DNA of 64,000 nt from Leucoraja ocellata. Taxonomy: Eukaryota. The notes under the pieces are model-generated. The model was not told where the DNA came from. It saw nothing but the letters and a program-made list of their open reading frames with translations, and did not search any database. The DNA is taken from assembly GCA_036785375.1 (NCBI GenBank), contig JAWMAR010000283.1:124001-188000 (forward strand), read 5' to 3'. The translations under genes were made by a program, and so were the position numbers. Shown here piece after piece: positions 1 to 30,900 of this stretch (its first letter is position 1; every line of letters begins with the position of its first letter).

Positions 1-1549
1 TGCCAACAGAATTGCATGCAGATGGTGTTTATACCATAAACTGGTAAACTGAAGTCCTATAAATTGTTGCCATTGTGTTAAGTGATTCTGCAGATTATTA
101 GTAACCATGCTGGCATAACCATACTGAGACAATAATACAGTCTGCACCGTGTAATAAGTCCCACTCAGTCCTGTTTATTCCAGCACAGCAGCATGCTCAC
201 TGGTTGATGATAATTAAGTACCAAATATACCATATTGTCTGGCTGCATAATCAAATAAAGGGAGGATAATATTGTTAGTATTAAGCCATTAATGTAATTG
301 GTTATGAAGCATAAAATATGTTATGTAATTAAATAGGCCAGAAATTATATGGCCTACATTAAGAATTACCCAAGCTGAGAAAATGCTGTTTCAAATACTG
401 TTTTAGGGAACGTTGTTTTCAACGTTCCATTTTGACTGCATTATAGAAATACTGTAAGAAGAAGGAAGGAAACTGACTGTAGCTGGTGCATCGTGGAAAC
501 CCCCGCAAAGATCATACGTGAAACTATAAGATCGTATTTTATATAACCTGAAACAATCCTGTTAGGTGACTGCAAGGAAAGTCATTTTATTGACAGTAGA
601 ATATACAACTTACAATACAAAAAGATTGAAGGCGATTTAATAACAAAATAATCTGCCACTCTTTTTAAATGTAAGCATTCGGCTCAGTGTGTGCAAGGAG
701 TTTCAGTTATTAAATAAACCTTATGGTCGGATGCCTCAACGATGTGATGTATTGGTGTTTGCTGTATCCGAATCCCTCAAACATCACATGCATTGGACAC
801 ACTCCATCTGATGGATTATTTAGACGGTAGCCAATCAGCTCCGCTGGCAATTCCATTCCTTCACTTGCAGTCATCTCTTAATATCTGCCACTGCTTCTTT
901 ATACAGTTTCCTGACTCTTTTTTTATATATATCTCACACAGGAGGTGATGGATATGCCTAAACGGGGGGGGGGGGGGGGGGGGGGGGGTGGAACCTCAAT
1001 GAGGAATGTGTTGTGTTACCAGTGCCATACATACATCCAGACTATAGATTGCAAACCGCAACATTTCATCTTTACATAAGATAATTCATGCATCGATCGT
1101 TTCCTGACAGATTTATGTCACTCAAAGGACAGTCTCACTTCTTGCTTTCATCGTTTCATGAAGCCTGGTTAATTTCTCTTAAGTCAATTGGGTGCCCCGA
1201 AGATGTTTCTTTTCCCTTAAACGTCCCGATTGTTCATTCACTGCTCGCGTTTTTATTCGCTGTGCTCCATAATTAAAACAAATGGCTTTGCAGACCTCAT
1301 TTGCACTGTGTATGGTAAATGAGCTAGTTGACCTTCTGCAGTTTGCGGGATAGGGTTGAATGTTCATGGGGCAAACTATTGCACTGGGCCTTTGTTGGAG
1401 CAGCATGCAAGTACGGGCAAGGCAAAAAAAAAATTGGAGGAATGGGTGGGTGGGAATTTTAAAAAAATGTAACTACAGTAATAGATAGAATAAACAGCCC
1501 GGTCGTACTTACTTCCCCGGTGCTTTGCGATTGGTAAACTAGATGAAGG

Positions 1550-24669: not shown

Positions 24670-25340
24670 GGAATGACATAAGTACATTAATACAATAAGT
24701 GGCAGGACCCTGAGGAGCATTGATGTACCAATAGATTTTAGGGTGCAAATCTATAGCTCCCTAAAAGTAGCAACACAAGTAGATAGGGTGGTAAAGAATC
24801 TGGGTGCTTACTTGTCCAACAGTCGGGGCACTGAGCATAAAGGTCGGGAGGATCTGATGCAGCTCCATAAAACTTTGGATATACATTTGGAGTATTGTGT
24901 TTAGTTTTGGTTGCCCCATTTCAGGAAGAACATGGAGGCTTTGGAGAGGATGGTTTGCATGATATTGTCTGAATTAGACAGCTATAAGGAAAGGTACACA
25001 AAAAAGCTGGAGAAACTCAGCGGGTGCAGCAGCATCTATGGAGCGAAGGAAATAGGCAACGTTTCGGGCCGAAAACCCTCAGTCTGAAGAAGGGCTTCGG
25101 CCCGAAACGTTGCCTATTTCCTTCGCTCCATAGATGCTGCTGCACCCGCTGAGTTTCTCCAGCTTTTTTGTGTACCTTTGATTCTCCAGCATCTGCAGTT
25201 CCTTCTTAAAAACAGCTATAAGGAAAGGTTGGACAAATTAGTATTGTTTTATTTGCAGTGTCAGAGACTGTGGTTCAACTGATGATCATATATAAAATTA
25301 TGAGGAACAAAAATAGGATAGATAGTCAGAGTTTTTTCCC
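24670..25340 (+). mobile_element. Degenerate CR1 ORF2 fragment interrupted by a foldback element
   Basis: LYKTL...HLEYCV*FWLPHFRK-like remnant continues on both sides of the insertion at 24996-25211. Confidence 0.7.
24996..25211 (+). mobile_element. Young Penelope-derived foldback with hammerhead-like core and 18-bp TSD
   Basis: Near-perfect inverted arms of about 80 bp; CTGAAGAAGGGCTTCGGCCCGAAACGTT at 25084; TSD ACAGCTATAAGGAAAGGT at 24978-24995 and 25212-25229. Confidence 0.85.
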
Positions 25341-25369
25341 CATTTTTACATTTTTAGCGTTAGTTTTTG

Positions 25370-25618
25370 TTTTACAGATACATTGTGGAAACAGGCCCTT
25401 TGGCCCACCAAAGACATGCCAACCAGCGCACACTTGTACACTAGTTCTATCCTGTAACCCAAAAACCTGCACATCTTTGGAATGTGGGAGGAAACTCAAG
25501 CAGTCACAGTCAGGAAGAACGTACAAACTCCGTACAGACAGCACCCGTAGTCAGGCTTGAACCTGGGTCTCTGGCAATGTAAGGCAGCATCTCCCCCACT
25601 GCGCCACTGTGCCACCGC
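25370..25618 (-). mobile_element. HE1-type V-SINE (internal deletions)
   Basis: Similar to the other copies. Confidence 0.8.
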
Positions 25619-26209
25619 CTCGAAGTATCTCAGTGACCCCACCAGCCACCCTTCCCCTCAAGATCCCTCAGTGACCTCACTGATCGCCCCTCACTCAAGT
25701 TGCTTCATTGAGCCCAATCATTAGTCAAGTCAAGTCAAGTCAAGAGAGTTTATTGTCATGTGACCCAGATAGGACAATGAAATTCTGGCTTGCTGCAGCA
25801 CAACAGGATATTGTAAGCATAAATACAGAACATTACTTTAATAGTAATGAGTAATTGGGGTCAAGGAAAGAGCGTTCACGTCACGGCCCTGTTTCCACCA
25901 ATCTTTCCACCGCCACGCACAAGAAGTGACAAGACAGACACCATTGTGTGCAGATGCTGAGAAGTGTGTTCAACTGTGGCTGAACAACTTCTAATCTTGT
26001 GTGTGGACTCGATAAGGAGAAGAATGAGTAATTCCCATGGAGGTTGTTGCCAGTCACATGCTTGTTCTGCTGTTTCCTGTTCGCCAGCTCCGGGGGCTTT
26101 ATGGGTGCTGTTGAATAGAGATGACTGCTGCCTATGTTGGGAATTCTGCCCCTTTGCTTCTGAGAGTCCCATCGGACGTTCACATGCTGAGACCTGCAGA
26201 GAGCGGTTC

Positions 26210-26555
26210 TAGGTTCATAAGTTATAGAAGAAAAATTAGGCCATTCGGCCCATCAATTGTATTCCACCATTCAATCATGGCCGATTTCCCCCTCAACCCC
26301 ATTCTCCTGCCTTCTCCCCGTAACCCTGACACCCATACTAATCAAGAATCTGTCAATAGCTGCCTTAAAAATATTAATTGACTTGACCTCCACAGCCGTC
26401 TGTGGCAATGAATTCCACAGATTCACCACCCTCTGACTAAAGAAATTCCTCCTTATCTCCTTTCTAAATGTAGGTCCTGTTATTCTGATTCTAGTTTTAG
26501 ACTCGGACTCAGACTAGTGGAAACATCCTCTCCACATCCACTCCATCTAGGCCTT
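26210..26555 (-). mobile_element. CR1-type LINE 3' end
   Basis: Similar to 11395-11735. Confidence 0.8.
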
Positions 26556-27722
26556 TGTTTTGTTTCGGATTACTCAAAGGTTGCAGCACAACAGAATCTA
26601 ACATCGCTGCTTGTGAAAGGTTGTTCTAATGTATTTCTTCCAGACCTTAATCTTCAACCTTAATTTCCCTCCCCCATGGAGCAGCTCTTAAACCATGATA
26701 CACTTTGCTGGTGGCACACAGCCCTGTTGCAGGGATTTGGGATAGGATGGAGATGATGGTCTGAGTGGCGGATTGTTCTATGTTTTACCCCGAGGCATTT
26801 TCCATGGATTATTTCCCTCATGGAATATTCAGCCTGTCTGCAATCATTTGATAGGTTTATATCTTGATGTAATTTTTATTGATCAGTTGAAAATGCACAA
26901 CTGTGGCACTCGATGTGAATGAAAGTTTGTGAATTGGCATGTTCGATTTTAACAACTGCATTTATCTGCATATTCTTGTCATCTTCATATTTAATCTCTT
27001 TCATTCATAAAGTAATTTTCTACCTCCCTAATGTACTATACTACCATAAATTAATCAGAACAATTTGGCTTGTTTAAAGAAAATAACTTTGAACGGCTAT
27101 TATTTAATTGATCTTTTAATTAAATGTGTTGATATTTATATCTTCCTAAATTTATCAATACTTAGATATTTTCAAATTAGTTTTTTTTTAAATTGGTGCA
27201 TAATTACAGCTCAAATGCACCGATTAGACTTATTTTAATAAATATTTTGTGCTCTAATAAACTACTTGAACTAAAGTAATGAAAAAAATCATATGCAACA
27301 GTATTGAGGTAAAGTTAATTAAACTGTAATCAAGGGTTTTAGCATTAATTATTAATACGTTTTCAAAGAAAACATTGCGTTTGAAAACTTCAACGCAACT
27401 TGTAATTCGATCCAGTAAACCTTACCCTAGACTTGAAATGAAATATATTTAATAAGAATGGTTGCAAAATAGACTTTTGTCTGTCGCTTATTATCATTTA
27501 AGTGGAACCTTTTGCGTGGGCAAGTAGATATTTTTAAAATCTTGCCAAAGAATAGGAAGGTGAGACAGAGTAATTACAGTTGTAGGGAATACAACAAATT
27601 AAATAATGCCTTGACTGTGAAAGCGTGGGAGTTGGTTGACAAGTGAATAAAAATAAAATAATTTGAACCTTAACGATTGAACACCTTGCTTCATTCCAGA
27701 GGCAAACTTGACTGGTTACAGT

Positions 27723-27902
27723 GTTAAAGAGGGAACTGCAGATGCTGGAGAATCGTAGGTTACACAGAAAAGCTGGAGGAACTCAGCGGGTGCAGCAGCA
27801 TCTATCTGTCTGAAGAAGGGTTTCGGCCCGAAACGTTGCCTATTTCCTTCGCTCCATAGATGCTGCTGCACCCGCTGAGTTTCTCCAGCTTTTCTGTGTA
27901 AC
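27723..27902 (-). mobile_element. Young Penelope-derived foldback with 16-bp TSD
   Basis: Same subfamily as 24996-25211 but with the complete terminus on the left; TSD CTTGACTGGTTACAGT at 27707-27722 and 27903-27918. Confidence 0.85.
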
Positions 27903-30900
27903 CTTGACTGGTTACAGTATGGCTTAATAAAAGAAGAATCACCTATTAGCAGACTAAGTTTGGAGAGAAAATAAAACAAGCTCAACTTGATGGTGCAGTA
28001 AAGGGTTTCACATACTGTAATTTACACTTCCAAGTTTCCTTCAGTTATTCCAATTAAAGTCATAGTACATTTTATTATTAATCTTCCCAAAGATAATATG
28101 GTCCAGTTATCATCAGCAGTAGGCCAGCTGTTAGCTGTCTATCAACCACCTGAAGTGGACAAGCTGAGCAGGAGCAAGAATGTCATTCCTTTGATCTGGC
28201 AAAGAGCAGCTGCTGATTTATGTACCAGGACTTTGTTCCTCTGTTCTATTTTACTTTCTTTCCTAAGGCAGAACCATGAAATCTGGTGGAAAACTGCATT
28301 GTTCATTGCAACATCAACAAGCTCTGACAACTGCAACAGGCTTTCGTTGGCTTCAAGACAGCTCTCAGGCATCTCTTCTGATGCTCACCTTTCGAGATTC
28401 AGTTGTTATTGTTCAATTTAACTTCTGTACATTGAATGGACTGTGGCCAACACGCCTGGGGCATAAACACACCTGTATGAAAGGAGCCTTATTGTGGCAA
28501 CTATCTCGTCCAAACTACATACATACTCCCCATTTCCATACTAAGAAAGAATGCTCCATCCTCCCCTATGGCACTTCTTGCCTGAAGTGCACTTCATATT
28601 TCTGCTGACCTGTAAAGCCTTATCCACAGTCAAGAGCATTTTTCCGTTTTTATTTATTAAGGCTATAAGACCTAAAGAATGGGGATTAGAGAGGTAACTT
28701 TATATTTGGCTGTCTGTCAGTCACAAAACAAAAATTCTCTCAGGATCCACAGAGCAAATCAGAGTGAAGTTTCCTTATTGGGATTAGTTCCATTAGCCCA
28801 GACCCAAACATTTTAGTTTGACATGTATATTGCTGAAGTAAATTCCACTCTTCACCTCCACACATATCACCAGCACACAGCATTCAGTAGATGCAGCGTT
28901 AGGCTGGCTTCTCATTTACAGAGTGCATGGTAGATGTTTTTGCAAAAAGATTTCTGGATGGACCAGTGAACGATTATCTTTGTAGATAAATCTGATGTGG
29001 TTAAGATGCTTCGCTATTAATCATCCATGATGATAAACTCTTAACATAATCAATACCTCACTTTTATGCGACGGTGTTAGATTACTTGATTGAATTAGAG
29101 ATTATATTAATGGACTTAATAAATCCTGAACTCAACATGTAGAGCGATGAGTCTCAAATTTTATATTAAACACAAGACAATCTGGAGGTAATTATAGTTT
29201 TAAAAAAACATTGTGCACAACACAAGCAACTTGAAAATAGCTTATTATTTTGAACATGGCTCTTCATATTACAGAGAAGTAAACCATATATTTGATGCCA
29301 TCTTATAGTCAGCTGCTTGGTCTACCTTACAAATCTTTGAAACCACTAGTTCAGGTCAATAAACTGAAGTGCCTGACCTCCAACTACTCTTGCAAGTGTC
29401 ATTTAGAATAAGAGCAGTGAATCACGAACAGAGTAGAAAATATCTCAATTATGGGACTGATTGACTCCATAGAGAGTTGTTGCTCTGTCATTACTGTAGA
29501 CAGGGAGCAGCCTGTATTGTGTATTAGCAGAGTTTAAAATTATTTTCAGTGGAACAACAGCAGGGCAATTCTATACAAGGGTAGAGTGATAATTATTTAA
29601 TCAATATTGTCGAACATCATTCCTACATTCAACAGCCCCCACTCAAAGATAACACAAAATACCAATTTCATTCTGCCTTAGTTTCTGCACTATTTACATA
29701 AGGATTTGTCTACAAGTTCTGATCTTCAGCAACCAAATCAAAATGTGCAACCACAGTTTTGCAATGAAATTAAACTTCACTTTTTGTTTAAATGTGCACA
29801 ATGTGAGATGTATTTTAGGGCACATCATGTAAAGCAAACACTCAACATGGGATTTGAATCAGAGTTAAATCTGTACCTACTGGTAGAGCACTGGATCAAC
29901 CTGACTTCTTGCAGATCCCAAGGCAAAACCCACAAAGCCTAACTGTCAAGAAAACGCAAATGAAAGGAGATACTGGTTGTAGAGTGGTGTGTCAGGTTCA
30001 TCCCTGAGGCCAGCGAATTGTGTTTTCTGAGTCGTCTGACATTAATAGTGCATAGAGCTCTCCCTCCTTTACACTCATGTTAAACCTCAAGTATGTTTGT
30101 GCGAAAGCCTCTATCCTCTGACTATTTGTTTCAATTAATGGAATGGAATTAATTGAACGGACGAAGTTCTACTTTAAATTATCCGTAGATAGCACTCTTT
30201 GTATGCCCAACTTCTAACTAGAAAACCATTCCCTTGTGTGATTTACATCACACATGATTTTACAATATTTTTCTTACTTGTACTCTCCAACCTCTGTCAC
30301 TAAAACCCAAGTTTATCAATTAAATAAAAATCCATGCTAGTTTGAAGTGACTTGCCCAAATGACCCAGTCTCAGAGCAGAAGGATAAATGTGATATAATG
30401 AGCTATCACTGGTTTCCTAACATCTTTATGACTGATGTGCATTTTTCAAAATAGCTTCTTCTCCAGTTGCTGAAGTTGTATACAGTGGATTTACATAATA
30501 CTGCCAAATATCAACATAATTAATGTGCACGTCCAAAATCCATGCCATTAAACTATGTCAATACATTAGCTTTCCACAAAAAGCATGAATAATTTGTGCG
30601 CATTTAGGCAAGGTTAAATGATGGTAGCAGAACTAACCTAAAGAGGGTGCTATTTTAAACTTGTCAACCTTCCTCACTGGATTTTTCAACTTTCTTTATC
30701 CCCATTGTGGCCCTGATTATCGAACAAGTGACTTATCTTTCAGCATTTACAGAGAGACAGAAGGAGTCGACCTAAAGGCGCGATATAAATCCCATCCATT
30801 ATTATTATTATTACTTTGATAAAACTTTCATATCCAGGCAAAGATAAAAGATAATGGATAACCTTGAGGTGCTAGTTCCTAAATTTCTCAATATTTAACG

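Follow-up and report, generated by a model that had tools for sequence, protein, structure and literature searches.

Two foldback inserts in a 64,000-nucleotide stretch of the genome of the skate Leucoraja ocellata (contig JAWMAR010000283.1, positions 124,001 to 188,000, hereafter the window) raise the question of whether hairpins with a hammerhead ribozyme-like core and long flanking direct repeats are mobile elements in their own right or pieces of a larger one. A first-pass annotation of this DNA had read them as a recently active, short, non-autonomous, retrozyme-like derivative of Penelope-like elements (PLEs). The foldbacks, the long perfect direct repeats on both sides of each and the hammerhead core that it described are indeed present. 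We consider it highly probable that both hairpins are 5'-truncated, head-to-head terminal-repeat copies of an autonomous ~4-kb Penelope-like element, likely built during insertion, because of their identity with the end of the parent, the open reading frame (ORF) found there, tandem junctions, two fixed outer ends, the sizes of the target-site duplications (TSDs), and private central junctions.

The parent element and the layout of the two hairpins

In the 3.44-Gb genome, the best 40 matches to the right arm of hairpin 1 are 98-100% alike, bearing out the proposed recent activity, and in 14 of 30 fetched loci (two pairs being duplicates) the arm, which forms the 3' end of the element, continues upstream into an ORF for a reverse transcriptase (RT) and a GIY-YIG endonuclease, as expected of a retrotransposed Penelope derivative. 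The longer copies contain a 776-aa frame with RVT_1 (E 8.7e-7) and C-terminal GIY-YIG (E 0.0025) matches, both scoring slightly below the Pfam cut-offs, along with a long proline-rich N-terminal region, a CX4CxxC linker upstream of the GIY-YIG domain, and a CCHH motif; the element unit is about 4.0 kb. This protein has 724 homologues, among which the named shark and ray (elasmobranch) ones are 63-69% identical, and a PDB sequence search with the ORF returned 0 matches. The relevant portions of PMC8557442 give a CX2-5CxxC linker and CCHH motif for Neptune/Nematis, not for Penelope/Poseidon, with the CCHH motif in a C-terminal GIY-YIG domain and the linker upstream of it, as in the skate protein. 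The parent is thus assignable, by linker and CCHH motif rather than by an RT tree, to the autonomous Neptune/Nematis-type PLEs; a Poseidon label was dropped, given that Penelope/Poseidon lack such a linker.

We number the element from the C of the CUGAAGA box (+1), the preceding bases being T0, G-1, A-2, and C-3. At the tandem junctions L081 and L154, the one-sided tail (about 33-36 nt) corresponds to the first ~35 nt of read-through towards the ATG at +165. Read-through junctions spaced ~4.0 kb apart (G000:C1:8668292/8672277 and C8:5608930/5612876) mark full tandem parent units. The exact core motif occurs 93,812 times in the genome vs 0 for a reversed control, and is therefore not a chance occurrence; the young tails have 12,879 exact occurrences, again vs 0 for the reversed control. 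Two young copies (L013, L014) lie inside an older copy of the GIY-YIG region of a related element, and no microsatellite target bias was evident in the sampled insertions.

Each window insert combines one tailed arm with one tail-less arm, the latter terminating at +94..+97 (Table 1). The first-pass annotation had described nearly identical hairpins with one complete and one truncated arm in opposite orientations and GGGC(UUCG)GCCC at the center of each. The inserts differ at subfamily-marking sites and thus belong to different subfamilies; the tail does swap side between them, but the hammerhead core is on the + strand in both, and the supposedly truncated arm is a known tail-less end. The C(UUCG)G stem II is found in hairpin 1 only, with hairpin 2 showing a U-G closing pair, as in most copies, and a core that sits in a 50-nt loop, off the axis. 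At least a dozen older relatives (70-83% alike) are present in the window, where 'about 10' had been proposed earlier. One such older hairpin (window:47050-47166; 77-81% alike) has the same layout with tail and a CTG microhomology joint at the core.

Table 1. Coordinates of the two hairpins and their parts in the window (element positions numbered from the CUGAAGA box)
Feature	Position	Strand	Remarks
Foldback arms, hairpin 1	24990-25080 / 25089-25179		91 nt each; 97% complementary
Left TSD, hairpin 1	24978..24995	+	18 nt apparent, perfect; last 5 nt also match element end
Inverted tail-less arm, hairpin 1	24996..25078	-	about +8 to +95; without CUGA box
Tailed arm, hairpin 1	25079..25211	+	-4 to about +130 of parent terminal repeat
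Minimal hammerhead motif, hairpin 1	25082..25113	+	by sequence; criteria of PMC4209133
Hammerhead helix I, hairpin 1	25082-83 / 25112-13	+	2 bp
CUGAAGA box, hairpin 1	25084-90	+	extra A next, before stem II
Stem II, hairpin 1	25092-25103	+	4 bp; then GAAAC-GUU
Predicted hammerhead cut, hairpin 1	after 25111	+	predicted from sequence
One-sided tail, hairpin 1	25179..25211	+	~33 nt; begins read-through towards parent ORF (tandem junctions L081, L154)
Right TSD, hairpin 1	25212..25229	+	
Foldback arms, hairpin 2	27757-27805 / 27856-27904		49 nt each; 98% complementary; 50 nt between
Left TSD, hairpin 2	27707..27722	+	16 nt apparent, perfect; microhomology at both ends
Tailed arm, hairpin 2	27723..27805	-	+47 to about +130; no hammerhead
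Extra bases between arms, hairpin 2	27806-27807		2 nt
Tail-less arm, hairpin 2	27808..27902	+	starts exactly at modal start G-1
Complete hammerhead core, hairpin 2	27810-27837	+	
Right TSD, hairpin 2	27903..27918	+	

An inverted truncated copy with a one-sided 30-40-nt tail and a TSD is the published PLE layout (PMC8557442, PMC3846280, as far as their relevant sections go). Endonuclease-positive (EN+) PLE insertions, e.g., Pen2a_Av of the rotifer Adineta, share with the skate family this head-to-head, 5'-truncated organization, as well as partial tandems and palindromes at the junction (PMC3846280, PMC8557442), and the skate insertions accordingly display RT and GIY-YIG ORF continuity, tandems of the pseudo-long terminal repeat, an inverted copy, a tail at one end, and a TSD. 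They differ from these rotifer examples in that most are only 100-230 bp, lack ORF sequence and number in the tens of thousands, and in a TSD of about 13-14 nt vs 8-10 (PMC3846280). A DNA transposon of the miniature inverted-repeat (MITE) type with terminal inverted repeats, already discounted by the first-pass annotation, would account for the fold-back shape and high copy number, but the ends are asymmetric, the apparent TSDs 12-20 nt, the centers variable, and the sequence continuous with an RT ORF, rather than showing two symmetric ends and a short fixed TSD; we regard it as scarcely credible.

Junctions, duplications, and the building of the hairpins

The structural sample comprises the first 91 of 100 listed tails on contig C1, which de-duplication by right flank reduced to 74 (also folding four read-through tails onto L154). 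These 74 insertions include 38 short hairpins, 10 long hairpins, 21 short singles, 4 long singles, and 1 read-through, with an adjacent inverted arm thus present in 48, and their two outer ends are fixed at +94..97 (tail-less) and +128..131 (tailed). The central junctions of both window hairpins each occur once in the genome. Since one private base could render the full junction unique, a one-base-shorter version of the hairpin 1 junction was also searched; it has nine genome matches (eight distinct), which fall in several subfamilies and carry the tail on the right in four instances and on the left in five. From the sequences, the copies sharing this junction are best read as independent events. 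That this junction recurs in different subfamilies, and irrespective of which arm bears the tail, therefore indicates that each insertion likely formed its hairpin de novo, without a dedicated hairpin RNA as the template.

These junctions bear directly on the earlier proposal of a short, retrozyme-like hairpin element that is non-autonomous and would spread in trans through an RNA of its own. The dominance of short copies (59/74) with a preferred start, the nine-fold recurrence of one junction type, and the short head-to-tail arrays with a full core per unit found elsewhere (L292, 299 bp x 3.1) are all consistent with it. However, the arms are the terminal repeat of an ORF-bearing parent, both window junctions are unique, the recurring one is polyphyletic and not tied to one side of the tail, the window inserts are inverted, single-core structures rather than tandem units, the hairpin would by prediction sequester the core, and the array junctions vary from locus to locus, which makes this proposal very improbable. 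Animal non-LTR (long terminal repeat) retrozymes, as described in the relevant part of bioRxiv 10.64898/2026.07.22.740005, likewise derive from a PLE terminal repeat and carry a type I hammerhead, but are tandem repeats of at least two complete ribozyme units, unlike the window inserts. In the skate family, tandem complete units are found only at other loci, viz., L292 and L175, as rare products, and a unit amplified as a family with a shared junction is not what the window hairpins present.

The L292 array (G000:C9:3393418-3396444) shows 100% identity between its units and a 14-nt flanking repeat, and other short head-to-tail arrays (L300 on C13, L175, L157, and L211) include 204 bp x 3.9 without a CUGA box and 292 bp x 2. 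All junctions of one array are the same, but each locus has its own, at a position between +226 and about +290; this suggests that arrays arise by repeated end-to-end jumps or from a circular template left uncleaved at the ribozyme site. The idea of a sharp third priming site at +228 does not hold, as the ends spread over that range and a drop from 494 to 301 is partly subfamily variation. L211:1561-2272 is a 66-bp minisatellite (10.8 copies, 98% matches) of an older subfamily's terminal repeat without a CUGA box, and a similar spacing of matches recurs in L206, L207, L212, and L215.

TSDs were compared across 39 hairpins whose tail-less end is intact (37 from the sample and the two of the window, L212 being doubtful). 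Apparent lengths are 12-20 nt; with microhomology between element and target allowed (mean 2.7 nt on the tail side and 1.2 nt on the inner side), a stagger of 14 fits 32 of the 39 and one of 13 fits 31. The 18- and 16-bp duplications reported earlier for the window hairpins do exist as perfect repeats, but their apparent lengths include such microhomology and both are compatible with a 13-14-nt stagger, so that a narrow stagger takes the place of the broadly variable TSDs initially proposed.

The arms of one insertion are concordant: they agree at an AAC indel in 33/34 cases (62% expected at random) and at a T-run in 30/34 (40% expected), and are both long or both short in 40/42. Of 40 hairpins tallied after exclusion of two pairs that are not adjacent, 18 have a tail-less arm that extends further 5', 5 have a tailed arm that does so, and 17 have arms of equal reach (p=0.011). 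An inverted arm made by self-priming or fold-back on one template of the same parent, rather than at both nicks, would agree with the variants common to both arms, the 17/40 near-symmetric hairpins, several centered on small palindromes such as stem II, and the antisense self-priming proposed for rotifer Penelopes in the pertinent section of PMC3846280. Fold-back of a tail-primed cDNA, however, cannot give the 18 cases with a farther-reaching tail-less arm, antisense self-priming can give neither the 5 opposite cases nor hairpin 1, and the tail-less end is fixed, with microhomology to the target end. Therefore, no single fold-back route fits all the hairpins, and we deem such an origin unlikely.

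The tailed arms also have a preferred start: 23/74 begin at -6..+1 and none at -12..-7, and in a set enriched for long copies, the match ends at G-1 in 31/127 arms, the bases that precede it being unrelated. Exact genome counts by start fall from T0 (23,829) through G-1 (21,888) and A-2 (17,463) to C-3 (14,995), i.e., by 8%, 20%, and 14% over the three steps. At L157, a copy starts at G-1 following a jump and a further time at T0, which is what a physical RNA end would produce. The G-1/A-2 site presumably matches the initiator consensus with A-2 as the start. In Drosophila virilis, Penelope has an internal promoter with an initiator, according to the part of PMC2377424 concerned. We lean towards G-1/A-2 as the probable RNA start on the strength of these observations. 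In three raw RNA runs, the reads are mostly 90-95% alike and 75-95% of them run into other sequence; piled-up molecule starts or ends were not found in these runs, which are uninformative on start or cut.

For the preferred origin, from both nicks on one parental RNA, we propose that the element protein would nick both target strands 13-14 nt apart and that the 3' end of each nick, helped by 1-5 nt of pairing, would serve as a primer on a single shared RNA, with reverse transcription beginning at the tail end from one nick and ~35 nt upstream from the other. Both cDNAs would run towards the RNA 5' end, with strand displacement where the arms overlap, and their head-to-head ends would be joined at the center by end-joining. 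Priming in the 5' repeat of the RNA would lead to run-off at its start (G-1/A-2) after ~95-130 nt and thus to the mass of short stubs, whereas priming in the 3' repeat would yield the long copies. The hammerhead would be a passenger, with the cleaved RNA not serving as the main template.

The relevant portions of PMC11167929 describe a Poseidon-clade enzyme for which both strands are nicked and extended, two internal starts bound the tail, the ribozyme is dispensable in vitro, and a dimer is predicted. More tentatively, and with somewhat less than even confidence, the stubs may record the Penelope mechanism in vivo, i.e., a dimer with a 13-14-nt stagger, one RNA primed at two fixed sites 35 nt apart, a joint advance of the cDNAs, and run-off at a start that coincides with the ribozyme's first base; the identical-junction 200-300 bp arrays would then result from end-to-end jumps made now and then on short RNA fragments, as retrozymes at birth without ribozyme cleavage.

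Several observations weigh against the two-nick origin. The two start sites of the Poseidon-clade enzyme are used in vitro without strand preference, as far as the cited part of PMC11167929 goes. The TSD lengths are bounded rather than measured because no empty site was seen; a comparison of four contig runs with the window gave no empty-site joint among 15 listed of about 1,890 joints, and is uninformative. Gene conversion at a later time could also have produced the arm concordance, as could the use of two RNAs from a single source locus, and the two arms of hairpin 1 themselves show different stem II sequences. In L011/L012 and L173 the tailed arm is long and the inverted one short, and equal arm lengths are seen in only 3/10 complete long hairpins, which, with no new case in the added loci, only hints at lock-step synthesis of the arms. 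The G-1 start sits at a polypyrimidine-CAG, splice-acceptor-like site, below a C-rich run, and in D. virilis helix I marks the end of an intron (relevant part of PMC4209133), but the splice-acceptor reading is not backed by any shared upstream exon seen before the G-1 start. Lastly, the structural sample is drawn from one contig.

The hammerhead motif

In a set of 202 motifs whose core boxes were fixed by the search pattern, the extra A is present in 201, a G-C pair at G10.1-C11.1 in 178, and the palindromic CG in 172, with a reversed control giving 0. The motif thus corresponds in sequence to the published description of minimal PLE hammerheads, as the first-pass annotation had recognized in calling it a minimal, dimer-type core; its activity is putative. 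The relevant portion of PMC4209133 lists the same features, viz., the core boxes, an extra base before helix II, G10.1-C11.1, and a palindromic 15.2-16.2, mostly as single, dispersed copies of the motif left by truncated PLEs. The skate helix II has 4 bp vs 7-8 in Schistosoma, and helix I 2 bp (U-G or U-A, then G-C) vs 4-5 in Schistosoma and 2 in D. virilis (PMC4209133); the short helix I agrees with the poor stem I pairing noted earlier and falls below the published 4-5 bp of the minimal PLE hammerhead. Stem II pairs 1-3 are fixed as G-C, and only pair 4, which closes the loop (U-G in 128, U-A in 62, and C-G in 4 of the 202), varies, almost exclusively by one-sided changes inherited within one family.

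Folding prediction does not favor the hammerhead fold in the monomer, and in the hairpins it has the core either trapped in the long stem or folded differently. The Rfam search suggested earlier yielded nothing at the gathering score, and its 23 matches at E<=10 include generic hairpin families alone and no hammerhead family. A purine precedes the cut-site G in 1,004 arms, compared with 487, 535, and 942 at the control positions +28, +30, and +33, and paired ends at the cut site amount to 9 pairs in 100 rows vs 1 in 300. We do not claim this as a cleavage signature: 43 matches in 40 loci hold at least 11 point mutants and several microhomology deletions, and a clean double end was seen in only one of three fetched pairs. 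Only 1 of the 74 tailed arms starts at +27..+31, and neither these arms nor the genome counts display a convincing or clear pile-up of ends at the ribozyme cut site.

The Poseidon element PAc of Anolis, in the relevant portions of PMC11167929, likewise has a tail bounded by two internal AC-rich start sites and a repeat that contains a minimal hammerhead, and there too cleaved RNA is not the dominant template. The PAc ORF starts in stem II, whereas the ATG of the skate element is at +165, beyond the tail, and the clades differ; the main text of that paper contains no discussion of inverted arms or TSDs.

Neighboring features and significance

The window also contains a TALE homeodomain exon (window:42754-42830, - strand; Homeobox_KN, E 1.9e-11), the one strong match among 100 of its 353 open frames that were tested; its peptide is, we assume, Meis-like, and Penelope stubs occur throughout the locus. 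A weak match to the CPEB3 ribozyme family (hepatitis delta virus-like) lies at window:25846-25908 on the + strand (26.7 bits vs a gathering score of 35; E 3.9e-5), in a repeat that runs on to about 26016. L221 contains a second copy (86% over 160 nt), whose start is equivalent to 25857, the G-run where the first helix of the CPEB3 model opens; the match may represent a different dispersed repeat with a ribozyme at its 5' end.

A literature search, whose coverage excluded subscription papers, Repbase/Dfam, and supplements, found no paper on this skate/ray family, on PLE twin priming, or on a fixed run-off start, and the formation of PLE inverted repeats and tails is still called unresolved in the consulted parts of PMC3846280, PMC8557442, and PMC11167929. 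The two inserts are ordinary fossils, i.e., dead short pieces of a common Penelope end and not a new self-cutting RNA element, and such hairpins should be annotated neither as MITEs nor as active ribozyme genes. While the element itself is ordinary, its value lies in the data: more than 12,000 young tails provide testable figures for the stagger, the priming sites, template sharing, and the run-off point.

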